Source: a virus (lineage: Duplodnaviria; Caudoviricetes). From it: DNA of 64,000 bases. A program made the translations under genes and the position numbers. Below the pieces are notes generated by a model, which did no database searches, was not told the origin of the DNA, and worked only from the letters and a program-made list of their open reading frames with translations. The stretch lies in the IMG/VR virus record IMGVR_UViG_3300005837_000196, positions 65 through 64,064 of that record; one strand, given 5' to 3'. Shown in pieces: positions 8,999 through 61,589 of this stretch; within the stretch, counting starts at the first letter, position 1, and each line of letters opens with the position of its first letter.

Positions 8999-9255
8999 AA
9001 CACTACAACAACATCTTGATCTTTTATTACTTGAAGAAGTTCCCCATCGTAATCTATCCCGTAGCCAGCATGCTTGTCGTAATATATGTAATCTCCTGCA
9101 GAAACTCCTTCCACATTATTACCAATAGAACGTACTTCAGCTTTTCTATATCGTATGTCATCTTGATGTTTTTCCGTAAGAATAAGTCCAGACTCTAAAG
9201 GCTTAACTTCTTCTTTAATTGATTTAATTATAATATATTTATTTACAGCTCGCAT
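8995..9255 (-). CDS. groES: Co-chaperonin GroES (Cpn10)
   Basis: 86 aa; mobile-loop SGLILT, AEVRSIG, GDYIYYDKHAG, DQDVVVVL; adjacent to GroEL. Confidence 0.85.
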   Translation of the reverse strand: MRAVNKYIIIKSIKEEVKPLESGLILTEKHQDDIRYRKAEVRSIGNNVEGVSAGDYIYYDKHAGYGIDYDGELLQVIKDQDVVVVL

Positions 9256-10808
9256 TATTCCTCTCTTTTATTAGAAATTACACAGTCTGCTGACATAATT
9301 GTTGTAGCCACAGATACTGCGTTTTTTAAAGCAGTCTTAGTAACTAGCATTGGGTCAATTATACCTTCTTTAACTAGATTAACGCTTTTACCACTAATAA
9401 CATTAATGCCTCTACCTTTTTTAACCGCTGGGTCATAATCAATACCAGCATTAGTTAATATTTTTTTATAAGGAGCTTTGATGGCATTAAAAAGCATATT
9501 ATATCCTGCTTTATCATTTGATGATATATTATCTGCAGCATTATGAAGCGCTATTCCAGCACCTGGAACAATACCTTCTTTAAGTGCAGCTTTAACAGCA
9601 TATATAGCGTCTTCTACTCTATCTTTCTTTTCCTTAAGCTCAATCTTAGAATTAGCCCCTACATATAATAATCCAACCGAACCTGAAAGCATTGCTTTTC
9701 TTTGTTCTAGCTTCTTAAGTAAATAAGGATTTTTTTCTTCTTTTAACTGTTTGTCTATAAGATCTAATCTACCTTTAACTTCTTCAGATAATTCATCAAT
9801 AGTTATAACGGTGTTTAAATCGTCTGTAACAGCTTTTTGAGCTTGACCTAATACTGATTCATTAATTAAATCTAAATCATCGCCTAACTCCTCTGAAATA
9901 ACTTTAGCACCTGTTAAAGCAGCTAAGTCTTCTAACATGTCTCTTCTTAAATTTGAAAAGCCAGGAGGGTCAATTACATTTGCTTTAATATTACCTTTGA
10001 CTTTATTCATTACTAAAGCTGATAACACTTGTTGTGATACGCTACCTATAATTAATATAGCTCTTTGGTTTTTTATAGCATACTCTAATACAGCTTGAAT
10101 TTTCCTAATGGTTGATATTTCAGAATCAACTAATAATATTAAAGGATTTTCAATCTCTATTTTATTTTTTTCTTTATCTGTAACTAGATGTTGAGACTTT
10201 ACTCCTGAGTCAAATTGTACGCCATCTATTATTTCTACATACGTTTCATCAGTATCAGACTCTTCCATAAGGACCACGCCGTCTTTACCCACTTTGTTAT
10301 AAGCATCTGCAATAAGTTTTCCTAATTGACTATCATTATTTGTAGATATATTTGCTACGTGCTCTAGCATTGAATCTTTAACTGGTATAGAAGCGCTTTC
10401 TAAATAAGTAATAACTTTTTTACTTGCTTCTAATATTTCTTTCTTTATGCTTCTTAAATCGTTATGATCTGTTTTTGCATATTCTTGTAAAATAGAGTGA
10501 GCGAGGACGGTGGATGTGGTGGTACCGTCTCCCGCTTCTTTTACTGTTTTCTGTGCTGCCTCTTTAACGAGGGTTGCGCCAATGTTTTCTACTGGATCCA
10601 TTAGCACCACACTATTAGCAACAGTCACTCCGTCTTTAGTTACAATTGGTTTACCCATTCCATCTTCGTAAATAACACATTTACCAGATGCTCCAAGTGT
10701 TGAAGAAACAGCTTCAGCTAATTTATCAACACCAATCATAATTTTTTCTTGAGCGGTATTGCCAAAAGATAATTCTTTTACAATCTCGCTAGGATGATTA
10801 AATTCCAT
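9255..10808 (-). CDS. groEL: Chaperonin GroEL (Cpn60)
   Basis: 517 aa; [24 protein letters not shown]...EGIVPGAG motifs; no GGM tail. Confidence 0.95.
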
Positions 10809-26409: not shown

Positions 26410-26673
26410 ATGGCTAAACCTAAGAATACTTGGATGCCTAAATACTTTCCTTCGGATGAAGAGACTAAATGGCGAGACTTTTGTAACAATAAAGGTATAA
26501 TAATATCTCCTATTGCTACAACGCAAGGACCAGATCCTAAAGAATGGCGAATAGGTATATCTTTTATGCCAGAATATAAAAAAATAAATTTAACTCCCAA
26601 TATATACATAGGTGATATTATATGGGAAGAAGTATATAAAATAATGAAATATTATTATGATAAATATAGATGA
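26410..26673 (+). CDS. Hypothetical protein
   Basis: 87-aa ORF between the primase-helicase and the ThyA homologue. Confidence 0.6.
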   Translation: MAKPKNTWMPKYFPSDEETKWRDFCNNKGIIISPIATTQGPDPKEWRIGISFMPEYKKINLTPNIYIGDIIWEEVYKIMKYYYDKYR

Positions 26674-27481
26674 AGAATACAAAGGCTTATTATCTGGTGT
26701 TTTTTATGCTGGCAAAAGCAAAGAAGATAGGACAGGTGTTGGTACAAAAGCTGTATTTGGCCGTACAATACGTCATGATATGGATGCGGGGTTTCCTCTT
26801 ATTACAACTAAAAAAGTTAGTTTTAATGCGGCACTTACGGAAATTTTATGGATACTGCAGGGTAGGACTGATATTAAATATCTTGTTGACAATGGTGTTA
26901 ATTATTGGACTCCCAATTATGAGGCCTCAGGAAGGAACGATGGAACTCTTGGTAAGGTATATGGTTATCAATGGAGAAATTTCTCTGGCGTTGATCAATT
27001 GTTCAATTTACTATCTGACATCAAAACAAATCCATCTTCGAGAAGACTTATGGTTAATGCCTGGAATCCTGCTGATTTCGATGATATGGCATTGCCTCCT
27101 TGTCATTATGGTTTTCAAGTCTATATAAATAATGGTGTTATGGACCTTATGTGGCAACAAAGATCTGTTGATATATTTTTAGGATTACCATATGATATAG
27201 CAATGTATGGTATATTGCTTAAAATGCTTGCTAAAGGTAATGGATATAAACCTGGACAATTGATAGGTCAACTAGGAGATTGTCATATATATAATAATCA
27301 TTTTGAACAAACTAAGCTACAATTAGCTAGAGAACCAAAAAAATTGCCTACCTTAGATGTATCATTTGGTTTGAAAATACAAGAAGGTGCAGGTAATTTT
27401 GTTTTTATACCTTCAAAAACCATGTTTAAATTAAACAATTATGAATCACATCCCGCTATTAAAGCAGAGCTTGCAATTTAA
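26657..27481 (+). CDS. thyA: Thymidylate synthase-family enzyme with Asn177-to-Asp substitution (possible dCMP methylase)
   Basis: DRTGVGT, EILW, SRR, LPPCH, QRSVD and GDCHIY are all present; E. coli PFNIASY reads PYDIAMY here (GAT at 27194-27196). Confidence 0.9.
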   Translation: MINIDEEYKGLLSGVFYAGKSKEDRTGVGTKAVFGRTIRHDMDAGFPLITTKKVSFNAALTEILWILQGRTDIKYLVDNGVNYWTPNYEASGRNDGTLGKVYGYQWRNFSGVDQLFNLLSDIKTNPSSRRLMVNAWNPADFDDMALPPCHYGFQVYINNGVMDLMWQQRSVDIFLGLPYDIAMYGILLKMLAKGNGYKPGQLIGQLGDCHIYNNHFEQTKLQLAREPKKLPTLDVSFGLKIQEGAGNFVFIPSKTMFKLNNYESHPAIKAELAI

Positions 27482-27492
27482 AAATAATTAAT

Positions 27493-28257
27493 ATGAATAA
27501 TAGTTATTACATTTATCATATTCCTGGTAAAAAAATAGGTGTAACACGTAATTTAAATAACAGAGTTACGCTAGTGCAGGGCTATAAGCCTGATGAATAT
27601 GAAGTTCTTGATTCTTCTGATGATATTGATTATATATCTATGAAGGAAATAGAACTTCAAAAGTCTTACGGTTATAAAATTGACCGAGGATTATATAAAA
27701 ATTTATTTAAATCTAATATGAAACTAAACGCTACAGACCAAACAACAACTTTCCCTGTTTCTAAAAAAGAACTTAAAAGCTTTCTTTTAGAAAACATAGG
27801 ATTAAAATGGAACACACCGTCGGGTGAATTTGAATTAACAGATGAATCAGTTAATTGGATTGTGTCTAATTCTAAAAAATCAATGTATAATGAAGATCGT
27901 TCCTACATTTATAATAAAGCTTTTTATGAGGCTTTTATTGCCGAGCCAACGTACAACAAGGAAAACATATTTGGACTCATTAGAGACTGGGCAAAAGAGC
28001 GTGGGATATATGATAAAGGAGATCCTAAGACTCAATTAATTAAACTGTATGAAGAATCAGGAGAACTTGCTCAGTCGTTGCTTAAAGACGATAAAGAAGG
28101 TATTGTTGACGCAATTGGTGACAGTGTTGTTGTCCTTACTAATCTTGCTCATTTGGTCGGAACTGATATTGAAACTTGTATCCAAGCTGCTTATGATGAA
28201 ATCTCTAATCGAACAGGTAAAATGGTAAACGGTACATTTCAAAAAGATACATTATAA
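27493..28257 (+). CDS. Fusion: GIY-YIG-like N-terminus plus MazG-like NTP pyrophosphatase C-terminus
   Basis: N: YIYHIPGKKIGVTRNLNNR...EIELQ. C: WAKERGI...KLYEESGELA...DAIGDSVVVL...AAYDEISNRTG. Confidence 0.75.
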   Translation: MNNSYYIYHIPGKKIGVTRNLNNRVTLVQGYKPDEYEVLDSSDDIDYISMKEIELQKSYGYKIDRGLYKNLFKSNMKLNATDQTTTFPVSKKELKSFLLENIGLKWNTPSGEFELTDESVNWIVSNSKKSMYNEDRSYIYNKAFYEAFIAEPTYNKENIFGLIRDWAKERGIYDKGDPKTQLIKLYEESGELAQSLLKDDKEGIVDAIGDSVVVLTNLAHLVGTDIETCIQAAYDEISNRTGKMVNGTFQKDTL

Positions 28258-28487
28258 TGAGGGATCAAATAATAAAACAAGTAATAAATAAAATTCAATC
28301 ACGATCTGATGTTGGCTTTAAAAAGTATGGAGTTACTTTAGAAGATGATGATCAACCTTTAGATAGATGGCTTCAGCATTTACAAGAAGAATTAATGGAC
28401 GCTGTTAACTATCTTGAAAAAGCTAGAATGGTTTTAAGAGAAGAGGTTGAAGAGTGTTACATAAGAGATGCGAAGAAAGAATTATAA
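28257..28487 (+). CDS. Small all-alpha NTP pyrophosphatase-like protein
   Basis: KKYGVTL...WLQHLQEELMDAVNY (EExxD) pattern. Confidence 0.55.
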   Translation: MRDQIIKQVINKIQSRSDVGFKKYGVTLEDDDQPLDRWLQHLQEELMDAVNYLEKARMVLREEVEECYIRDAKKEL

Positions 28488-29185: not shown

Positions 29186-30154
29186 ATGGGATTATTTGAT
29201 GAAAGAATTGCGTACAAACCTTTTGAATATCCAGAGTACTATACTGAGGGATGGCTTAAACAAGCTCAAGCATTCTGGCTACACACCGAAATACCTATGT
29301 CAGGTGACGTTAAGGATTGGAACGAAAAATTAACAGATTCTGAAAAGAATTTAGTAGGTAATATATTATTAGGATTTGCTCAAACAGAATGTGCTGTATC
29401 TGATTACTGGACACAAAAAGTTGTAGGTTGGTTTCCAAAACACGAAATACAACAAATGGCTATGATGTTTGGTTCACAAGAAACAATACATGCTGTAGCA
29501 TACAGTTATTTAAATGAAACATTAGGATTAGAAAACTTCGAAGCGTTTCTTCAAGATGAAGCAACAATGGAACGTTTTGATAATTTAGTTAGTTATGATG
29601 GAAATGATCGGATTGGGATTGCTAAAAGTCTCGCCATATTTAGTGCATTCGCTGAAGGAGTTAGTCTCTATTCTGCTTTCGCTGTTCTTTATTCTTTTCA
29701 ATTACGTAATTTACTCAAAGGAATAGGACAACAGATGAAATGGTCTGTAAGAGATGAATCTTTACATTCTAAAATGGGTTGTAAATTATTCAGACATATG
29801 TGTGAGGAAGATAATAACTTATTAGAAAATTGTAAAGAAGATGTTATCAAAGCAGCAGAAGCAATGCTTAGCGCAGAAGAAAAGTATATTGACAAAATGT
29901 TCGAACAAGGAGATATTGATAATCTTAAATCCAACGATCTCAAACAATTTATCAGAAAACGTCTTAATGAAAAATTACAAGAACTCGGTTACAGCAACCT
30001 CGGGACTTACTTTAAATTTGACAAAGCAGGAGCGGAAAATCTTGACTGGTTCTATCATCTTACCGGGGGGCATACTCATACTGATTTTTTTGCTGTTCGT
30101 CCGACTGATTATTCCAAAGCAAACGAGGGAGAAGATTTTGAAGATATATGGTAA
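29186..30154 (+). CDS. nrdB: Ribonucleotide reductase class Ia beta subunit
   Basis: AFWLHTEI, QETIHAVAY, FAEGVSLYSAF, RDESLH di-iron motifs. Confidence 0.95.
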   Translation: MGLFDERIAYKPFEYPEYYTEGWLKQAQAFWLHTEIPMSGDVKDWNEKLTDSEKNLVGNILLGFAQTECAVSDYWTQKVVGWFPKHEIQQMAMMFGSQETIHAVAYSYLNETLGLENFEAFLQDEATMERFDNLVSYDGNDRIGIAKSLAIFSAFAEGVSLYSAFAVLYSFQLRNLLKGIGQQMKWSVRDESLHSKMGCKLFRHMCEEDNNLLENCKEDVIKAAEAMLSAEEKYIDKMFEQGDIDNLKSNDLKQFIRKRLNEKLQELGYSNLGTYFKFDKAGAENLDWFYHLTGGHTHTDFFAVRPTDYSKANEGEDFEDIW

Positions 30155-30414: not shown

Positions 30415-30629
30415 TGAAAGAAAACAAACTAATAGAAATGTGGAACAGAGTAGAAATTCTGGGCCAAAACGTGCAACAAATAATTCAGGAACTAAACAAT
30501 CTAAAAGACCTCTCGATTGGGACGCTAGAGACATTGAAACGAATCCCGGATTACGACAAAGCACTGGAAACTATGAAGACAGATTTTTTGAATAAAGAAA
30601 AAGAAAAAGCAGAAAAGAATGTGGAATAA
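30414..30629 (+). CDS. Hypothetical coiled-coil protein
   Basis: 71-aa ORF coupled to its neighbours. Confidence 0.6.
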   Translation: MKENKLIEMWNRVEILGQNVQQIIQELNNLKDLSIGTLETLKRIPDYDKALETMKTDFLNKEKEKAEKNVE

Positions 30630-32361
30630 CGATTGGAAAAAAGGTGAAGACTATCCAATTTGGGGTGACACTGAAGTGTATAAAAAAACAATAACAGGTG
30701 GATACCTATTATTTGATGAAACCCCTAAAGATGCATATATGCGTGTTGCTAAAACTGTAGCGAGACGTTTATATAAGCCAGAACTAGCAGATAAGTTTTT
30801 TCAATATATATGGGATGGCTGGCTATGTTTAGCCTCACCAGTGCTGTCTAATACAGGCACAGATAGAGGTTTACCTATCAGTTGTTTTGGTATTGACGTT
30901 GCGGATAGCATAAATGATATTGGACAAAAGAATTTAGAAATGATGTTATTAGCCAAGCATGGAGGCGGTGTTGGTATTGGCATTAATCAAATAAGACCCG
31001 CCGGAGCTAAAATTACAGGAAATGGAACATCTGATGGAGTGGTGCCTTTTTGCAAGATATACGATTCAACAATACTCGCCACTAATCAAGGATCTGTCAG
31101 GAGAGGAGCTGCGTCAGTTAATATCAATGCTGATCACTCCGACTTTGAAGAATGGTTGGAGATCCGAGAACCAAAAGGAGACGTTAACAGACAGTCACTT
31201 AATCTCCACCAGTGCGCTGTGGTCGGTGACAAGTTTATGCGAAGACTTGAATCTGGAGATAAAGAAACTAGAAGGAAGTGGGGAAAACTATTACAAAAGC
31301 GTAAAGCAACTGGAGAACCTTATATACTCTTTAAGGGAAATACAAACAAGGTTAATCCAGAAGCATACAAATCAAATGGGCTCAAAGTTCATATGACAAA
31401 TATATGCAGTGAGATAACTTTACATACTGATGAATCACATTCTTTTGTATGTTGCTTGTCTTCTGTTAACCTAGATAAATACGACGAATGGAAGGATACG
31501 AATCTAATTTACGACGCAACTTGGTTCCTGGACGGTGTGCTAGAAGAATTTATTCAAAAGGCAAAGAATATGAAGGGATTCGAGAACTCTGTACGCAGTG
31601 CGGAGAAAGGGCGGGCACTTGGACTTGGTGTCCTTGGGTGGCACAGCCTGCTGCAAAAGAAAGGAATAGCTTTCGAAGGTTTATTAGCACAATTCAAAAC
31701 GCGAGAAATATTTTCAAAAATAAAAATAGAAACTGAAAGAGCTTCAAGAGAATTAGCTGAAGTTTATGGTGAACCTTTATGGTGTGTAGGTACAGGAATG
31801 AGAAATACCCATTTAAGATCTATTGCGCCAACTGTTTCAAATAGTAAACTTAGTGGTAATGTTTCACCTGGTATTGAACCATGGGCAGCAAATGTATTTA
31901 CAGAGCAATCTGCCAAAGGTACATTTATAAGAAAAAATAAAGAACTTAAAAAAGTATTAAGAAAAATTGGTATCGATAATAAAGAAACTTGGGATAAGAT
32001 TTTGGAAGATGGTGGATCCGTTCAAGGAGTTGAAGGACTCGATGGATGGTTTTACGATCACCTCGGAAGATTAAATGAAGAGGAAGGGGAAAGTGTTAAG
32101 AATGTATTTAAGACTTTTAAAGAAATCAATCAACTAGAATTAGTTAATCAAGCTGGTATACGTCAAGATTATATAGATCAATCAGTAAGTTTGAACCTTG
32201 CGTTTCCTTCTGTTGCAGATCCTAAATGGATAAATAAAGTTCATCTAGAGGCATGGAAGCGTGGTATTAAGACTTTATACTATATGAGAACGGAATCAGT
32301 GTTGCGTGGCGATATTGCAGCCAAAGCAATGGATCCTGATTGTTTAAGTTGTGATGGATAA
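30619..32361 (+). CDS. nrdA: Ribonucleotide reductase class Ia alpha subunit (short, no ATP cone)
   Basis: LPISCF, TNICSEI, CCLSSVNL, IAPTVS, KTLYYMR and C-terminal CLSCDG. Confidence 0.95.
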   Translation: MWNNDWKKGEDYPIWGDTEVYKKTITGGYLLFDETPKDAYMRVAKTVARRLYKPELADKFFQYIWDGWLCLASPVLSNTGTDRGLPISCFGIDVADSINDIGQKNLEMMLLAKHGGGVGIGINQIRPAGAKITGNGTSDGVVPFCKIYDSTILATNQGSVRRGAASVNINADHSDFEEWLEIREPKGDVNRQSLNLHQCAVVGDKFMRRLESGDKETRRKWGKLLQKRKATGEPYILFKGNTNKVNPEAYKSNGLKVHMTNICSEITLHTDESHSFVCCLSSVNLDKYDEWKDTNLIYDATWFLDGVLEEFIQKAKNMKGFENSVRSAEKGRALGLGVLGWHSLLQKKGIAFEGLLAQFKTREIFSKIKIETERASRELAEVYGEPLWCVGTGMRNTHLRSIAPTVSNSKLSGNVSPGIEPWAANVFTEQSAKGTFIRKNKELKKVLRKIGIDNKETWDKILEDGGSVQGVEGLDGWFYDHLGRLNEEEGESVKNVFKTFKEINQLELVNQAGIRQDYIDQSVSLNLAFPSVADPKWINKVHLEAWKRGIKTLYYMRTESVLRGDIAAKAMDPDCLSCDG

Positions 32362-43900: not shown

Positions 43901-46900
43901 TTAAGGTTGATTTATTGTTATGGTAAAATCAGGATCACCAATTGTTTTGTTTTGATTTACAACTGTTATAACTGGATCTGCTTTTCTAACCTTTAATGAT
44001 ATTGTTTTAGTTCCAGCATTAAAACTACCAAGTGCTGATTGCACTATTTTTATACTTGTATCACCCGCTCCTGTTATTGTTACTACATCACCTAAGACGG
44101 TAGCTACGGAACTATTAGCTATTGTATATTTAAATACCCCTGAGCTATCTGAAGATGGATTTAATACAAAGTTTGCATCCCCGTATGTTTTAACTATATC
44201 ATCAATATTTATTGTAGGATCAACAGGAGGTGCACAAACCTCAATATTTTTTATTTTATCAGGAGCGTTTTGGCTTTCTCTAATAGTTGTTATAAGTAAA
44301 TTTGTACCAAATAATTTAAAAGTATTTTCTGAATTAGGTAAATTAAATTTTCTTGAAAAACCTAAAATACTATCATGCATTAAATAATCTCCTATTTTAG
44401 GAGTTGTTCTAAGCGGATCTGATGTATATAAAAGCCCTCTTGTTTTATATCCTTTTATAACTTCTACATTACAATTACCTGGTTGTAAATAAACAACTTG
44501 AAAACCAATATATCCACTGCCACTAGTTTGAGTTTTTAAGTCAAGTTCAATTCTACCAATTTGTTTTGATGGATTTGAATTTATATTAGCTAAAGTATTT
44601 AAAGTAAGTTCTGTTTTTTTATTGTTCACCTCTACTTGACCCGTAACAGTTACACTATCTCCATTTATATCAGTATATGTGCCTGCAGTGGCTGCTGTTA
44701 ATTCGCTATCCTTTAAATCTATAGTATGTCCTGTGGAAGTAAATATTTTTCTAAAATGTTTTGTGTTTGTTCTATCAATTGTAAACTTTTTTTGGAATAA
44801 AAAGTTTTGATTTGCGTTATTACTTAATGTACCCTGCAAAGTAGATGTTGTAAAGTCTTCGTCAGATTTATCGGTTAGTTCATATAATATACTAAAGTCT
44901 GAAACAACAACAGTAGTTTGTATAATTTCTTTTTTAGGCCTAACACTTATTGTTTTTGATGCAGATGGTAAATTAAATGGTTTAGTTATAAAACCTACTT
45001 TTAATAAGTTGTTATCTAATATAAGTTCTATTCTATCATCTAAAGCATATGTTGATGTAACTATATCTGATCCATCTGTTATTTCAAAATCACTAGCATT
45101 TATAGTTGGTATAAATTCTTTGCCAGATGAAGGTGTTAAAGTAAATAAATATTGTTTTTCTGCATTTGCTAATAAATTAGCAGGCCCAGTTATAGTATAA
45201 TTTGCTGAATCTGTATAATTTGAAGTAGTAGCTCCCCCTAAAATAGTTTTATTATATTCTACTGTTAATGTAACATCTTTATTTATTATATTATCTAACA
45301 TTAATACAGCCTTATTATCAACACTTATATTATCTATTTCAACTTCGCCTGTTATTGTAACTTTATAATGTTGAATACTATACACCATTTTTAAATTACT
45401 AATTTTAACAGAGTCAGTTGTGTTTTCAAAAATAAAATCAGATTGCGTCGGCTGTCTTAGTATAGTGTGATTTACATTACTTAAAGTTATTTCTTGTGTA
45501 AATGTATTTACGATTCTTCCACCAGTAAATCCTTGTATTTTATTTTTATTACTTATAATAGATCCAAATTGAGAAAACAAAGTAAGCGTTTTAGCGGAAG
45601 TTACCGGTCTTAATATAGACACTGATGAGGTTCCTATGTTTGAAGATAACTCAGCGCCATTGCCTGGTAGTATTTCAATTTCAAATGTTTCTTCAGTATC
45701 TGCAAAAGGAAAATCTATATCAATTTCATATATTCCATTTGTTCCTAATTCTAAATTTGTTTGTCTATCTATTTCAGAAGTAGTATTTGTAAGCTTATAT
45801 GTAAATTTTGCATTTGGGTCACCAGATATAACTAATTTTTTTTCTGTATTAAAAAATGTAACATTTGATTTGTCTATTGAAATAGAAGATATTTTCTTTT
45901 TTACAACAGGCAATTCTTTAGCTATAACTTTAATTTCATAATCTATATCTGTATTAGTTACGTTTGGTACAACTATTTTTTCTGTTATAGTTATACTACC
46001 ATTATTATTTATTTTTTTATCTAATAATATAAGACTATTGTTAACAGTTATATAATCAGGTTCTAATTTCCAGCCATTATCTGGTGTAATTGTTCTTGAT
46101 TTAATTGTTTCTAAAACATTAGGATTGCTAGATATAGAATATGAATCATTATTAACAGATGACGTAACATTTTCTAATTTAACAGTATAGTTTCCTGATA
46201 TAGATATATTTTTTTGTTCTGCAAAATTAATTTTACATAGCTCAATAACTTTAGCAGTATTTCTTGTAGGTTGTGTTTTTATACCATGGGTATAGGCTAA
46301 TTTAACATTATTGCCATCTTGTGTAGCAACAACATTAGTCAAATTAAAATTACTAGCTTTTAGCTCATATCCGTTTTTAGGAAATATTGTAATACTTACT
46401 GTTGAATTTAATTTTGTGCCCGGAGCTTCATTAACAGTAATTATATTAGAAGTATATTTTTCTGTTTCTTGTGGAGACAACTCAAATGTTAAATTTGTAT
46501 TTGATACAGCAGCAACTGATGAAATACTTACTGAATTGCTTATACCTTGAAAATTAAAGTTTTTAGCATCAATGTTATCTATATCTTTTTTTTCACCATT
46601 TACAAAAGCAAAATATTTATTTTCTTTTTCTTTAAAAGATATTGTATCAGATTTTTGTTGATCAGTAATAACTTTGGCTGTCCAATTAGTTGTTCCTTCA
46701 TAACCTAAAGTTTTGTAACTTTTAATCATTGAAGGATCATTGTTTATTTCAAGCTCAATTGTTGACTTGTATTGTGAACCGTAAAAATTATTATAGGGCA
46801 CATTGTTTACATCATGCTCCCACAATTCTCCGTTATTGTATGAATAATAAGTATTATTCATTGATATTGCAAACTCAGGTATAAATGACTTTCTAGTTGG

Positions 46901-49900
46901 CCAACCATTTGTAGCTTCATCAAAACATACAGTATCTCTACCTATAAATGATATATTATATAATCCATTATAATTGTCATAGGATCCTATTATTTTACTA
47001 TTATCTATTGTTGAATTATAACACCCTGTATTAAAAAATCTATCAGAAAAAAAATCTGACATTAATATTTTATCAATTGGTGTTAAACCATCTTTTGATA
47101 ATCTTATTACAGCTCCACGTGCTTGATCTGTAAAATAACATCTAAATCCATACGATGCAAAAGATTCAGGGTTTTTTGATATACCATATTCACCATTATA
47201 AGGACTAACCGCGCCTATAACTTTATTTGTTGCAACCACATTAGGATTACCATCTGCATTAAATAATATATCTTTATCAGCTAATGCTCTTACTATTTTA
47301 TCTTCGCAAAGTATAATAATACTATCGTCCCATGCATGCAATTTTTGTACACTACCATAAGAAGGTAATAAATCTTTAGTTATAGGATTAGCTTGATTAA
47401 ATTCATTTGATTTATTAACTCCACTTCTTGAATTAACAATACCAGACCATATAAGACCATTAAATTTATGTTCTTCTTTTATTTGCTCAGATATAACAGA
47501 GGAAGCCTTAACACCTACGTCTATAAAAGGAGCATTATAATCATCACGTATTCTGTTTGATTCAACACCATTACCAAAACTAAAGCAATTAAACCATTTT
47601 AATGTTTGTTCATTTCCATGGTTAGCTATTTCATATGCTTTTTCAGTTTCATAATATATATCTAAATCAGTAACATTTTCAATCGGCTCAGTTTCAAATA
47701 TTGCTGGATTAGATGGCGACAATACTTCTGTATCATCAATTTCTTTTAAAAACTTTATAGTTAATGTTTTATCAGCATCTCCCGGGCTAGGTATTAAAAA
47801 GCTTGCAATAGTGTATTTATTGCCATCTAAATTTCTAAAACCTACAGATTTTTGAGTTATATTATCTTGTTGTTTACCTTTTAAATTTCTTTCATTTCCA
47901 ACAACTAATTCTACAATAGTGTCAATATTATTTATTTTAACTTTTTGACCAGTTTTAAATAAATTAATATATTCATTACTTTGCATTTGTGAAGTTTCTT
48001 CTATATCAAATTGATATTTTGTAGAGTCAAAATTTTTGTCTTTTTTAGTAATAAATATTGGCTCTACAGGACTCGCTAATGCATTATTTCCTCTTCTCTT
48101 TCCTAACCTAACTCCAGCTTTGCCATCCACCTCTAAAGTTTCTATGGTTGCATAGTTTTTACCACTAAAAAGCTCTTTGCTGTTATCTTCTAATAAAACG
48201 TTATCTTCAACTTTAACAAAAAACTTCCCATCAAATTCTTTATCACCTTTGCTTCCTTCTGTTTTATATATTTCTATACCGATATTAGACCTAAGTGTTT
48301 TATTTGCATCCGTATCGTATAAAACATTAACATCATCAATAAAAGGAGTTTTAAATATAATTTCAGCAACAGTTAAATTATTACTTCCAGCATTTGTTTT
48401 AAACCTTACAGACGATATTTCATAAAATTTTGTTTTATCTATCTCAGCAGTAAACTTTATAAAATTACCAGGTTTTAAAAACGCTTTAGCGTCATCAGAA
48501 ATACCATTTGCGTTATTATCTAAAGATTCTATTAATATTCTTATACTATCTTCAGTTGGTGTTTTGTCTTCTGTTTTAACTGTAATAGTTCCGCCATCAT
48601 CAGTATTACCGTCTCCAAACGCTTCATCAAATTTTATATCTTGAAAAGTAGTTTGTAATTTTTTTCTAAATGCAATAAAGTCTGGTGGCTCGTTAAATAT
48701 TTCAATTACTTTATATCTATTATTTTGATTAAGCACGGCATTGTTGCTACCGTGTTGTTTTTTTAATAATAAATATGTTTCTTCTGTTATTTTATTTCTT
48801 TCTGCTGATGGAAAAGATATATAAGAAAAACCATTATCTTTGTCAGTATATATTTTATCTGCAGCTAAATTATAATACTCTTTTGAAATATCTTTAACGT
48901 AGTATTTAAAGTATTTAGCCCATGCAGGCGGCTCACTTGTTAATGAAACATTAAAAGAATTTTGTAAAGCACTTTTGTTTTTTTCAATTTTTATTGAACC
49001 AGATTGGCTGGATAATATTGGTGAATGTCTATTGTATTCATCAATATATGAAACACCTATTTGATATGTTCTATCTGATTTAATTGATGATTTTGTATTA
49101 TTTCTAGTTTTTAACTTTATGTCAAATTCTGCTTCATTGTATATATCATAATTTTGAGTGTAATTACCATATATAATTCTATTAGCAGTAATTTCTTGAG
49201 CTTTTGCTTTTTTAGGTACATTATCCCATGACCTTAGTAATTGGTCATTAGGTAATACTGAATGTATTTGTTTTTTAGTTATTTCATAAGTATCAGAAAA
49301 ATTAATTTTCTTTTGACCCTTTAATGTATATATATTTTGATTCCTTGTTTCTTTAAATAATATTTCAATTTCTTCAACATTATCAGTCCCTAAATCAAAA
49401 TTAGATAAAACTATTTTTCTTAATTTATTTTCCATCCCTTGATTAAAAGCATGCTTACCATCATATCTAAAATCTTGAGGAATAAAAGCAACTTCTGAAA
49501 AGGGTGATATAGTAGAATATTCGCCGTCTTTATATTTCCATCTATAAGCAAACCTTACAAAGGATAATTCATATATAGGCTTATCCTCTATAAGTGTTAT
49601 TTGTAAACCATAATCTTTATCTTCTAAATCAATGTTTTTTGTTTTTAAAACAAGTATTACAGTTTTATCTAAGCTATTTAGCTGTTTTACGTACGCAACC
49701 GCCTCTAAGGCTTCTTTATTTGCTTCAGGATTAGTTTCTAATATTTCAACTTCAGAATTAATTTCCCAATTAGGTAATGTTGTATTTAAAGTAATTTTTA
49801 TTTCTTCTCCTATATCTACGGCTCTTCTACCTCCATTTGAAAATGAAGCATCCTTAAAAAGATTTATTGTTTCTGTTATTTCTGTTACTCCATCAATTAA

Positions 49901-50803
49901 GCTTTCTAATAAATCAATAGTAGGAGCATGCATGGGAGCTTTTTTAGCAACAGACAAATCTTCTTCTGTAAAATCTCTTGTTTGTTTTTCTATATTGCCG
50001 CTACTATTTTTTTTGCTATACACAACTTTAGTTTGCGCGTCAAATATATTATTGCTAAACTTTTTAAATTTACTTAAATTTATTTTTCTTGGAGCATTTA
50101 AGTTATCTGTCCAAAATAATAAATCATCAATTATATTTATACCTGTAATTAAATTATTTTTTGAAAAATTTAACACACCAGCTAAAGTATAAGTAAATAA
50201 TAAATTTATATTTCCAAAATCTTTACCATTATACTCAATATTTTTAAAAACAAATTTATCTTCTTCTTTTCTGAGAACTGTATTTTTTGGAATTGATATT
50301 TTTATGTATGGTTCAGTTGAAGATAAACTTAAGTTATTTTTAACTAATGTTTCTGCACCATTTGCAGCAGGTATGGGCCCGCATAAAGCCTTAAGTTCGG
50401 CTTCTACTATATTATCTAAGGTTAATTCGTTTTCATCATTAGATTCAACCGTAACAGCTTTTAAAGTACTTGTGCCGTTTGTTTTAATATCAATTAAAAT
50501 AGGTGAAACAACGTTTTGGTCTTGATTGTATTCATAAATACCATCAATAGTATCAGATGTTACCATCCAATATATTTTATTTTTTAATGAATACTCAATG
50601 CTGCCAATCGTTGACGGGTTAGTTAACCCTAAAGCTGATATTTTTTTATTGCCTAATAAATTTTCAACAGCTCCTACGTCTGATCCTTCAGATGAGGATA
50701 CGTGAATATTCAAAGCATCTCGATACGACCCGTTTTCAACTAATCTTTCGTCTCGGTCTTTATCCATCCTTCCGGATACAAAAGTATGCTTTAGTTCTGC
50801 CAT
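43901..50803 (-). CDS. Large tail nozzle/stabilisation protein with C-terminal Ig-like extensions
   Basis: 2300 aa; N-terminal FVSGRMDKDRDERL...YRDALNI, FGNGVESNRIRDD, YGISKNPESFA, typical of crAss-like/podovirus tail muzzle genes; C-terminal KTYGDANF Ig-like repeat. Confidence 0.75.
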   Translation of the reverse strand: MAELKHTFVSGRMDKDRDERLVENGSYRDALNIHVSSSEGSDVGAVENLLGNKKISALGLTNPSTIGSIEYSLKNKIYWMVTSDTIDGIYEYNQDQNVVSPILIDIKTNGTSTLKAVTVESNDENELTLDNIVEAELKALCGPIPAANGAETLVKNNLSLSSTEPYIKISIPKNTVLRKEEDKFVFKNIEYNGKDFGNINLLFTYTLAGVLNFSKNNLITGINIIDDLLFWTDNLNAPRKINLSKFKKFSNNIFDAQTKVVYSKKNSSGNIEKQTRDFTEEDLSVAKKAPMHAPTIDLLESLIDGVTEITETINLFKDASFSNGGRRAVDIGEEIKITLNTTLPNWEINSEVEILETNPEANKEALEAVAYVKQLNSLDKTVILVLKTKNIDLEDKDYGLQITLIEDKPIYELSFVRFAYRWKYKDGEYSTISPFSEVAFIPQDFRYDGKHAFNQGMENKLRKIVLSNFDLGTDNVEEIEILFKETRNQNIYTLKGQKKINFSDTYEITKKQIHSVLPNDQLLRSWDNVPKKAKAQEITANRIIYGNYTQNYDIYNEAEFDIKLKTRNNTKSSIKSDRTYQIGVSYIDEYNRHSPILSSQSGSIKIEKNKSALQNSFNVSLTSEPPAWAKYFKYYVKDISKEYYNLAADKIYTDKDNGFSYISFPSAERNKITEETYLLLKKQHGSNNAVLNQNNRYKVIEIFNEPPDFIAFRKKLQTTFQDIKFDEAFGDGNTDDGGTITVKTEDKTPTEDSIRILIESLDNNANGISDDAKAFLKPGNFIKFTAEIDKTKFYEISSVRFKTNAGSNNLTVAEIIFKTPFIDDVNVLYDTDANKTLRSNIGIEIYKTEGSKGDKEFDGKFFVKVEDNVLLEDNSKELFSGKNYATIETLEVDGKAGVRLGKRRGNNALASPVEPIFITKKDKNFDSTKYQFDIEETSQMQSNEYINLFKTGQKVKINNIDTIVELVVGNERNLKGKQQDNITQKSVGFRNLDGNKYTIASFLIPSPGDADKTLTIKFLKEIDDTEVLSPSNPAIFETEPIENVTDLDIYYETEKAYEIANHGNEQTLKWFNCFSFGNGVESNRIRDDYNAPFIDVGVKASSVISEQIKEEHKFNGLIWSGIVNSRSGVNKSNEFNQANPITKDLLPSYGSVQKLHAWDDSIIILCEDKIVRALADKDILFNADGNPNVVATNKVIGAVSPYNGEYGISKNPESFASYGFRCYFTDQARGAVIRLSKDGLTPIDKILMSDFFSDRFFNTGCYNSTIDNSKIIGSYDNYNGLYNISFIGRDTVCFDEATNGWPTRKSFIPEFAISMNNTYYSYNNGELWEHDVNNVPYNNFYGSQYKSTIELEINNDPSMIKSYKTLGYEGTTNWTAKVITDQQKSDTISFKEKENKYFAFVNGEKKDIDNIDAKNFNFQGISNSVSISSVAAVSNTNLTFELSPQETEKYTSNIITVNEAPGTKLNSTVSITIFPKNGYELKASNFNLTNVVATQDGNNVKLAYTHGIKTQPTRNTAKVIELCKINFAEQKNISISGNYTVKLENVTSSVNNDSYSISSNPNVLETIKSRTITPDNGWKLEPDYITVNNSLILLDKKINNNGSITITEKIVVPNVTNTDIDYEIKVIAKELPVVKKKISSISIDKSNVTFFNTEKKLVISGDPNAKFTYKLTNTTSEIDRQTNLELGTNGIYEIDIDFPFADTEETFEIEILPGNGAELSSNIGTSSVSILRPVTSAKTLTLFSQFGSIISNKNKIQGFTGGRIVNTFTQEITLSNVNHTILRQPTQSDFIFENTTDSVKISNLKMVYSIQHYKVTITGEVEIDNISVDNKAVLMLDNIINKDVTLTVEYNKTILGGATTSNYTDSANYTITGPANLLANAEKQYLFTLTPSSGKEFIPTINASDFEITDGSDIVTSTYALDDRIELILDNNLLKVGFITKPFNLPSASKTISVRPKKEIIQTTVVVSDFSILYELTDKSDEDFTTSTLQGTLSNNANQNFLFQKKFTIDRTNTKHFRKIFTSTGHTIDLKDSELTAATAGTYTDINGDSVTVTGQVEVNNKKTELTLNTLANINSNPSKQIGRIELDLKTQTSGSGYIGFQVVYLQPGNCNVEVIKGYKTRGLLYTSDPLRTTPKIGDYLMHDSILGFSRKFNLPNSENTFKLFGTNLLITTIRESQNAPDKIKNIEVCAPPVDPTINIDDIVKTYGDANFVLNPSSDSSGVFKYTIANSSVATVLGDVVTITGAGDTSIKIVQSALGSFNAGTKTISLKVRKADPVITVVNQNKTIGDPDFTITINQP

Positions 50804-60761: not shown

Positions 60762-61036
60762 TATTTAGATCTTCTTTCCGCAAATCCTTTAAGGCTTTCT
60801 TTAGCCTCAACAGGTTTATTATCCATCAAGTTTTTTTCTGCTTCAATACGTGTAAGTATTTCAAACGCGTCAAAAATTGCTAACTTTTTTGTTGCTGCCG
60901 CATTCTTAAGTCTATCTGCAGCAAGTTCATCCTCACCACCTTCAACTATTATTTCTTCTTCAGCAACTCTTATTAGTTCATGTACAGCCTTATACCCAGC
61001 TTGTACTATACTCGACTTCAGTTCCTTTGCGTTCAT
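60761..61036 (-). CDS. Candidate terminase small subunit
   Basis: 91-aa helical ORF coupled immediately upstream of terL; position only. Confidence 0.4.
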   Translation of the reverse strand: MNAKELKSSIVQAGYKAVHELIRVAEEEIIVEGGEDELAADRLKNAAATKKLAIFDAFEILTRIEAEKNLMDNKPVEAKESLKGFAERRSK

Positions 61037-61589
61037 ATTTAATTGAAATTGAATTAAGCGGTACCCTATATAATCTTTCGTCTTCTATAACGAATTCATA
61101 TTCGCTATTAGGTGTAAAACCTATTAAATCATTATCAGATAGATTAAAGTCTCTTAAATCACTCCCTAGGTGCTTTAAAACGCCCATGAGCGGTTCTTCT
61201 TTATCTATATTTAATTTATTTAAGTTGTGAATTGGTTTTACGAAACAAAATCCAGGTGGCGTATGCCATTTACCATTTCTTTTATATAAAAATATTTGTT
61301 CGCTGTAACAAAAGTACTTATCCTCTTGAAAATAGCTTCTACTATTTTTTTCTTTACCTCGCATATCATAAAATCTTCTAAATACATTATGATGTACAAT
61401 TACTTCATCACCTATTTGTAAATATTCATTATCATTAACAATAGGTAATTCTACAATTACACCATTTCTATTTACAAACTTATGATCTTCTATTGAAGTA
61501 TTAAGTATAAGTTCTTTATTATCAACGCTTTTCTTATTATTGTATCTTCCATTTAAAGGTTCAACAATATAAGCATGCGTATTTTTCAT
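60990..61589 (-). CDS. Tandem double GroES-like (Cpn10-fold) protein
   Basis: Two GroES-like repeats: ...LILNTS...NGVIVELP...LQIGDEVIVHHN and ...FCFVKP...MGVLKHLG...DNDLIGF...IEDERLYRV. Confidence 0.6.
   Translation of the reverse strand: MKNTHAYIVEPLNGRYNNKKSVDNKELILNTSIEDHKFVNRNGVIVELPIVNDNEYLQIGDEVIVHHNVFRRFYDMRGKEKNSRSYFQEDKYFCYSEQIFLYKRNGKWHTPPGFCFVKPIHNLNKLNIDKEEPLMGVLKHLGSDLRDFNLSDNDLIGFTPNSEYEFVIEDERLYRVPLNSISIKYERKGTEVEYSTSWV

Follow-up and report, generated by a model that had tools for sequence, protein, structure and literature searches.

Phage enzymes of the thymidylate synthase (TS) superfamily follow a published residue code (Escherichia coli ThyA numbering), in which N177D denotes deoxycytidine monophosphate (dCMP) as substrate, a bulky hydrophobic residue at L143 keeps water out so that a methyl product results, Asp or Glu at L143 gives hydroxymethyl, and D169N marks the 5-hydroxy-dCMP synthases (PMC13326640). 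Asp177 itself is common to dCMP hydroxymethylases and 5-hydroxy-dCMP synthases (PMC13326640), and according to the early mutant studies, as cited in PMC8670742, N177D in E. coli and N229D in L. casei shift the preference to dCMP (Hardy & Nalivaika 1992; Liu & Santi 1992). In MetaGPA, Asp177 TS genes were the top feature tied to cytosine-modified viral contigs (PMC8670742). Of seven metagenomic Asp177 homologues, five gave 5-methyldeoxycytidine (5mdC) in E. coli when T4 deoxynucleoside monophosphate (dNMP) kinase was co-expressed, as did the enzyme of Xp12, and in Xp12, PaMx74 and the mSCD-B5 contig dTTP is made from part of the 5mdCTP pool via deamination (bioRxiv 10.1101/2024.12.05.627091). 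Natural phage Asp177 ThyA homologues have already been published and tested as 5mdCMP synthases, and the idea is not new. Here we analyzed a 64,000-nucleotide stretch of a Caudoviricetes genome (IMG/VR record IMGVR_UViG_3300005837_000196, positions 65 to 64,064; hereafter the window), which encodes a ThyA homologue with Asp at the Asn177 position, a predicted dCMP methylase in a stripped-down gene context.

The likeness of this ThyA homologue to the PaMx74 (PaMx74_52)/Xp12 enzyme lies in the TS fold, the Asp in GLPYD and the retained catalytic Cys, Arg and Tyr; the PaMx74 TS also adjoins a nucleotide pyrophosphohydrolase gene, and ribonucleotide reductase (RNR) is found in both phages. However, the PaMx74 TS is only 28% identical to it over 253 residues with the C-terminal tail unaligned, and has Pro at H147 and Leu at Q165, where the ThyA homologue is canonical. 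Its pyrophosphohydrolase has no detectable similarity to the MazG fusion protein of the window, and in our tree the ThyA homologue family sits with canonical ThyA, away from PaMx74. The Pamexvirus cassette combines pyrophosphohydrolase, TS, dCMP-family deaminase and dihydrofolate reductase (DHFR) with a phage polymerase; the last three enzymes were not found in the window phage, which thus has neither the full gene set nor the TS lineage of the Xp12/Pamexvirus 5-methylcytosine (5mC) cassette.

The engineered E. coli ThyA N177D and L. casei TS N229D are likewise otherwise canonical enzymes with a single Asn-to-Asp switch, but these are laboratory-made, whereas the Asp of the window is natural, fixed in its clade and accompanied by F176Y and S180M (PYDIAMY versus PFNIASY). 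The metavirome Asp177 TS of MetaGPA (NEB) are also homologues from uncultured phages, and several made 5mdC in E. coli; those tested had been chosen for an adjacent dCMP-family deaminase, which the window family is without. T4 gp42 dCMP hydroxymethylase and the 5-hydroxy-dCMP synthases of RB69 and DLP3 share the superfamily, Asp at N177 and dCMP as substrate, but have L143D/E or D169N (PMC13326640), while the ThyA homologue equals E. coli ThyA at both positions. Phages of the T4/RB69/DLP3 type encode dNMP kinases and their own polymerases, unlike the window phage. Since the principle has been published on other phage enzymes, our results add range and natural history: the kind of phage enzyme is known, here in a new lineage and with a pared-down gene context, and there is no new mechanism.

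A ThyA homologue with Asp at the pyrimidine-specificity position

In canonical ThyA, the Asn at E. coli position 177 hydrogen-bonds O4 and N3 of uracil. The ThyA homologue of the window (274 aa, Table 1) is a full-length member of the TS-fold family, as a Pfam profile search matched residues 7-273 to PF00303 (E=1.1e-88) with 297 bits against a cut-off of 24.3, and it also belongs to phrog_160 (E=8e-102). Solved thymidylate synthases from bacteria, phage T4 and human align with it end to end at 45-50% identity. In alignments with these PDB sequences, LGLPYDIAMY of the query falls on LGVPFNIASY, placing D180 on E. coli N177, and the Asn-to-Asp exchange that an earlier note on this DNA had reported is thereby established.

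A residue-by-residue comparison with the ThyA of E. coli (NC_000913) showed that R21, E58, W80, Y94, R126/R127, L143, C146 and H147 are kept, as are Q165, R166, S167, D169, H207, Y209 and the C-terminal K..LAI. Besides N177D, all active-site residues within 6 Å of C5 are unchanged, L143 and D169 included. In the numbering of the ThyA homologue, Cys149, Tyr102, Trp84 and Leu146 are intact together with the closing C-terminal tail, in agreement with the claim of the earlier note that the catalytic and folate-binding motifs had been preserved.

The protein carries Asp180 in place of the Asn that defines canonical dUMP-specific ThyA (EC 2.1.1.45; dUMP, deoxyuridine monophosphate), Leu146 at the position where T4-type dCMP hydroxymethylases have an acidic residue, and Asp172 where the 5-hydroxy-dCMP synthases of RB69/DLP3 type have Asn. 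Asp at N177 together with a hydrophobic L143 and Asp at D169 is the pattern of the dCMP C5-methyltransferase class, and Leu146 and Asp172 are invariant in the family. Under the published code, Asp/Leu/Asp at N177/L143/D169 therefore predicts a reductive dCMP methylase (5-methyl-dCMP synthase). With the folate and hydride-transfer residues intact as well, the reading as a dCMP methylase that had been proposed before gains support, and we hold it with good confidence.

Asp is fixed across relatives

An alignment of homologues had been suggested as a check on this residue, with sequencing error as one worry. Asp was found in 119 of 120 cluster representatives at 65-100% identity to the ThyA homologue. 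The codon at 27194 is invariant in contigs from four independent marine studies, with differences at nearby synonymous sites, and the relatives encode Asp by GAT or GAC with synonymous variation in the flanking codons, which removes the concern about sequencing error. The runs containing this DNA are represented by assembled Logan contigs of metagenomes, 17 of 20 of them marine. A single transition would turn the Asp codon back to Asn; its near-exclusive presence despite this, amid synonymous variation, therefore speaks for selection and indicates that Asp is kept by purifying selection. The residue pattern and its fixation are direct observations in these sequences.

A motif pattern scan of the 150 nearest 50%-cluster representatives gave Asn in 131 and Asp in 9. 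F176Y was rejected as a marker of the Asp type, as Tyr is also present in 22 Asn-type representatives, and Gln or Asn before QRS was rejected as a covariant of the Asp/Asn switch, since both states occur with both residues. Among phage records, the best tblastn match of the ThyA homologue had 47.9% identity and all matches were annotated as ordinary thymidylate synthase; megablast of 20 kb of the window against 50,697 phage records gave no match.

In about half of the ThyA-Asp family the C-terminus is lengthened by 1-7 residues (...LSVG, ...LNVGPMVSKE; P0032-P0119). The terminal carboxylate of TS helps active-site closure, and the extended members may close the active site differently.

Origin of the lineage and an Asn-type revertant

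In a FastTree tree of 113 sequences, rooted on PaMx74 (a long-branch row used as outgroup), the family and two further representatives formed one Asp clade with moderate support (86) beside canonical Asn-type ThyAs, and the remaining Asp-type sequences were singles scattered among Asn types. Parsimony on this tree gave nine Asn/Asp changes, at least three of them forced by well-supported branches. A separate Asp clade together with scattered Asp singles therefore points to a repeated Asn-to-Asp switch and to an origin of the clade apart from the Xp12 type. Judged from the tree, this lineage arose inside canonical ThyA, independently of the Xp12-type origin.

One cluster at 90% identity holds ten Asn (AAT) members, including its representative P0050, and two Asp members. 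This cluster is nested within the Asp clade, which makes Asn the derived state in it. With 99.4-99.8% identity among themselves, the Asn contigs of at least four studies represent one population. The Asn-type gene is located at L003:7062-7883 and is also present on L004, L005 and L016-L019.

In 17.9 kb of the Asn population CGCG was not observed once against about 6 expected, with other G+C-only sites at normal frequency; the matching region holds 3-18 CGCG sites in every Asp lineage. This absence has a Poisson p of ~0.0025 before correction for 12 motifs and rests on small numbers, and the Asp sisters of the Asn population are known only from contigs of at most 3.5 kb. The missing CGCG is consistent with lost protection followed by purging of the site.

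Restriction sites in phages with and without the ThyA homologue

We compared site counts with expectations from a second-order Markov model. Four flavobacterial podophages served as ThyA-less relatives, namely MW202828 (L011), Maribacter phage Panino (L012), elemoE (L014) and phi38:1 (L015), and each of them is without at least one G+C-only 4-bp palindrome at expected counts of 11-48. CCGG is absent from MW202828 (0 observed/22 expected), Panino (0/48) and elemoE (0/11), CGCG from Panino (0/12), elemoE (0/11) and phi38:1 (0/24), and GGCC from elemoE (0/23). In contrast, none of the seven ThyA-Asp lineages is without any G+C-only palindrome; in the window the counts were 33/52 for CCGG, 22/30 for CGCG, 32/41 for GGCC and 41/60 for GCGC. 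The 5mC phage PaMx74 shows no purge of G+C-only palindromes either. The difference, purging in 4/4 ThyA-less versus 0/7 ThyA-Asp phages, corresponds to a Fisher p of 1/330.

5mC typically protects CCGG, CGCG and GGCC from the enzymes that cut there, and for this reason the lack of such purging in the ThyA-Asp phages is what a cytosine-modified genome predicts. The pattern is supportive of modified DNA, not decisive, and it counts against explanations in which the DNA is unmodified. Several of the ThyA-less relatives are also purged of GATC (0/156, 0/178) or CATG (2/122). Together these losses form a strong signature of restriction avoidance, one that the ThyA-Asp phages do not show.

The gene module around the ThyA homologue

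The window is nearly the whole of a 64,064-bp record that CheckV estimates as 100% complete. It belongs to a marine flavobacterial phage that is podovirus-like and has ~33% G+C. Capsid proteins of Flavobacterium elemoviruses, Maribacter phage Panino, Cellulophaga phages and a freshwater metagenomic phage share 45-54% identity with its own, and eight studies, of which six are labelled marine metagenomes, have runs with almost the same DNA. The replication module on the plus strand starts with a helix-turn-helix protein, a sigma-like protein, Erf, a PDDEXK exonuclease, a 106-aa open reading frame (ORF) and a primase-helicase. Judged by eye from its ...DDLPF end, the 106-aa ORF is a putative single-stranded DNA-binding protein (SSB). 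An 87-aa ORF, the ThyA homologue, a 254-aa MazG fusion, a 76-aa ORF, a DUF1064 resolvase, nrdB and nrdA follow (Table 1).

Table 1. Features in and around the ThyA homologue (positions in the window; aa, amino acids).
Feature	Position	Strand	Evidence
87-aa conserved ORF	26410..26673	+	ORF list; 85-87-aa gene in same position in all relatives
ThyA homologue, predicted dCMP C5-methyltransferase (5-methyl-dCMP synthase)	26657..27481	+	PF00303, PDB alignments, residue table, Asp in relatives
GAT codon of Asp180, equivalent of E. coli Asn177	27194..27196	+	sequence read; contigs of four studies
GIY-YIG-like + MazG two-domain protein, 254 aa	27493..28257	+	PHROG, Pfam, motifs, AF2, fold searches
76-aa conserved protein, predicted helical hairpin	28257..28487	+	AF2: two helices
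class I ribonucleotide reductase small subunit (nrdB)	29186..30154	+	PF00268 on orthologues in all relatives
class I ribonucleotide reductase large subunit (nrdA)	30619..32361	+	PF00317/PF02867 on orthologues in relatives

The order 87-aa ORF, ThyA-Asp, GIY-YIG-like + MazG fusion, 76-88-aa ORF, DUF1064, nrdB and nrdA is conserved in all lineages sampled. In addition, a distant ThyA-Asp of 60% identity (PFDIGLY) is found in another phage, of 74.7 kb, that encodes a T7-like RNA polymerase (L026:10001-13750), where the same fusion protein of 250-270 aa (32% identity, E=1e-33) lies a few genes away. One lineage has a CAP-domain (PF00188) gene between ThyA-Asp and the MazG fusion (L024:10785-11336, L025:9525-10076).

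The 254-aa protein matched phrog_1992 and phrog_715, both MazG-like (E=6.5e-33 and 5e-28), and its C-terminal domain (residues ~150-250) gave weak Pfam matches to MazG/PRA-PH, below the cut-off. The metal motifs EExGE and DxxGD are present, with E187, E188, E191, D206 and D210 invariant. Its AF2 model had a VIA Z of 8.2-8.3 to MazG/PRA-PH, at a low pLDDT (~55) in the MazG domain, and the top Foldseek matches included Bacillus MazG and mouse and human dCTPase, all weak (E ~4e-3). By fold and metal motifs the C-terminal domain falls into the MazG/all-alpha NTP pyrophosphohydrolase family, and we regard the protein as a candidate (d)CTPase that would supply dCMP to the methylase.

The N-terminal domain of the same protein (residues ~1-66, window 27493-27700) contains YIY...KIG...R24...E52 with Y8, G16, R24 and E52 invariant. 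It was modelled at pLDDT 80-90 with a beta-beta-alpha-beta-alpha order and looks like a GIY-YIG-like nuclease core, although the profile matches to T5orf172/MUG113 stayed sub-threshold (E=0.04-0.09) and fold searches were dominated by the C-terminal domain. T4 endonuclease II belongs to the GIY-YIG superfamily and attacks cytosine DNA. Breakdown of unmodified DNA and hydrolysis of dCTP could be joined in this fusion protein.

Both genes that follow thyA had been taken for MazG-like pyrophosphatases in the earlier note. This stands for the 254-aa protein and is not borne out for the 76-aa protein, in which MazG similarity was not supported by Pfam at E<=10, PHROGs, a PDB profile search, AF2 or the protein atlas. 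The 76-aa protein matched only PHROGs of unknown function and unnamed viral clusters of the protein atlas, hhalign against the neighbouring MazG protein gave a probability of 0.3%, and its model is a two-helix hairpin with one EExxD. In BLASTP, neither the MazG fusion nor the 76-aa protein was similar to the pyrophosphatases of Panino and PaMx74. On the other side of thyA, the end of the 87-aa ORF overlaps the thyA start by 17 nt, so that the two are likely translationally coupled and the 87-aa product, which had no Pfam or PHROG match, may be a coupled partner of the ThyA homologue.

Six-frame searches of the whole record found a single TS. Profile searches of the same kind found no PF00383 deaminase, no DNA polymerase A and no trimeric dUTPase. 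In every relative sampled the module likewise comes without such enzymes, with neither a deaminase within 10 kb of ThyA nor a DNA polymerase A in the flanks. Hidden Markov model (HMM) searches in six frames found no thymidylate or cytidylate kinase, which extends to the whole record what had been noted before, that no dNMP kinase could be recognized. No DHFR-type partner was recognized in the complete 64-kb phage, and PHROG and Pfam scans of other sizeable ORFs gave no nucleotide-metabolism enzymes beyond the replication module. A polymerase or kinase hidden among unassigned ORFs was considered and rejected, as the 596-aa ORF looks tail-fibre-like and other mid-size ORFs matched structural, lysis or unknown PHROGs. 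The conserved module and the absence of these other enzymes are, like the fixed residue, direct observations.

Proposed pathway and alternatives

We propose that the Asp at the Asn177 position would retune the TS-fold enzyme from dUMP to dCMP, and that 5-methyl-dCMP would then be formed from methylene-tetrahydrofolate and dCMP by the normal reductive TS mechanism. The phage RNR would provide deoxycytidine nucleotides, and the adjacent MazG-domain protein would hydrolyze dCTP to dCMP, feeding the methylase and depleting unmodified dCTP. As no phage kinase or polymerase was found, host kinases would convert 5-methyl-dCMP into the triphosphate, and the phage primase-helicase and putative SSB would recruit the host replisome, which would place 5-methyl-dC into phage DNA. 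The outcome would be a largely 5mC-substituted genome, resistant to many type II restriction enzymes. What the enzyme makes, which nucleotide MazG hydrolyzes, phosphorylation by host kinases and the presence of 5mC in virions are all inferred. In support, a TS also adjoins a pyrophosphohydrolase in the 5mC phage PaMx74, and the same fusion protein accompanies the ThyA-Asp of 60% identity. In our judgement it is slightly more probable than not that host kinases and the host replisome bring about a substantial replacement of cytosine by 5mC in the virion DNA.

Several observations weigh against this pathway. The phage has no dNMP kinase of its own, and whether host kinases accept 5-methyl-dCMP is uncertain because in the published in vivo assays a T4 or cognate dNMP kinase was supplied by co-expression (bioRxiv 10.1101/2024.12.05.627091; PMC13326640); the literature library that we searched gave nothing of use on whether bacterial CMP kinases do so. 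The whole gene module is retained in the Asn sub-lineage, and so is not strictly dependent on the Asp state. MazG-like genes are present in the ThyA-less relatives Panino and elemoE, and therefore the presence of MazG alone is weak evidence. In the comparison of restriction sites, host differences and the common descent of the ThyA-Asp lineages are confounding factors. Some C-containing sites are still avoided, as GATATC occurs 0 times in the window against 16.8 expected. In the 74.7-kb phage GATC is absent (0 versus 64 expected) with CCGG, CGCG and GGCC at normal counts. MboI-type GATC enzymes are not blocked by 5mC. GATATC is also missing from L024 (0/5.9) and depleted in Panino and elemoE, and these phages seem to be under an EcoRV-type pressure that is independent of their ThyA state.

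The methylated nucleotide could instead serve as a thymidylate bypass, in which a host deaminase of the dCMP/dCTP family turns it into dTMP/dTTP for the 67% A+T genome and the DNA is left unmodified. Xp12, PaMx74 and the mSCD-B5 contig make dTTP in this way, but in these published cases the deaminase is phage-encoded and adjacent (bioRxiv 10.1101/2024.12.05.627091), and here no such gene is present in the record or near ThyA in the relatives. The missing dNMP kinase would fit a bypass, and so would the viability of the Asn revertant with the same module, as expected if the net output is thymidylate in either state. On the other hand, a plain Asn ThyA needs fewer steps to dTMP, yet Asp is selected in nearly all relatives, and unmodified DNA predicts CCGG, CGCG and GGCC purges like those of the ThyA-less relatives, of which none was seen. 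Both fates of 5-methyl-dCMP, 5mC DNA or deamination to thymidylate, are possible; the site statistics lean to modified DNA, and we consider the bypass unlikely.

The remaining alternatives concern the enzyme itself. Another C5 product of dCMP (5-hydroxymethyl, 5-hydroxy or other) might be incorporated, possibly as a base for hypermodification, given that Asp177 is shared with the dCMP hydroxymethylases and 5-hydroxy-dCMP synthases (PMC13326640), that two of the seven tested Asp177 homologues gave no 5mdC (bioRxiv 10.1101/2024.12.05.627091) and that the C-terminal extensions in about half of the family could loosen active-site closure. Against this, the family-invariant Leu at L143 and Asp at D169 point to methyl, H147, Y94, W80 and the tail are canonical, and no glycosyltransferase or other hypermodification gene was recognized in the genome, which leaves such a product quite improbable. 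An ordinary dUMP-methylating thymidylate synthase that tolerates Asp would agree with the 45-50% identity to canonical ThyA, with the otherwise intact catalytic residues and with the occurrence of Asn and Asp forms within one 90%-identity cluster. The shift to dCMP in the N177D and N229D mutants, as cited in PMC8670742, speaks against it. Moreover, Asn is the norm among the nearest representatives, so that neutral drift does not account for an entire clade with Asp alone; we give this possibility little weight indeed.

Beyond 5mC substitution as such, a broader reading joins all parts: a minimal 5mC system of a ThyA-derived methylase and a MazG dCTPase in marine Flavobacteriia podophages, evolved independently of the Xp12 type, which one point mutation (Asp to Asn) can switch off in nature, with the revertant then under restriction pressure and purging its CGCG sites. 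Taken as a whole this may hold, but we put it forward tentatively and regard it as doubtful. If true, this minimal system would be a natural experiment in which one residue is linked to the chemistry of DNA across the genome and to the evolution of motifs. If the prediction of 5mC DNA holds, a widespread group of coastal flavobacterial phages would swap cytosine for 5mC with only two phage genes and host enzymes, the range of 5mC genomes, so far soil and sewage siphophages that infect Proteobacteria, would grow to include podophages of marine Bacteroidota, and the Asn-to-Asp switch would be seen to arise repeatedly from ordinary ThyA. Virome methods would be affected, as 5mC DNA is resistant to many restriction steps and to some enzymatic steps of library preparation, and so would the ecology of host defence, through evasion of type II and exposure to type IV systems.

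Other features of the genome

Two further observations concern the virion and packaging genes. The C-terminal domain of a 2300-aa virion protein (window 43901-50803), whose 2227-aa neighbour is without a Pfam match, is that of crAss-like muzzle proteins (PF25729, E=8.5e-10). A GroEL (phrog_5725, E=8.5e-137) and a 199-aa GroES-like protein are encoded at window positions 9255-10808 and 60990-61589, beside packaging genes, an arrangement that is common to related elemoviruses and Cellulophaga phage phi38:1.

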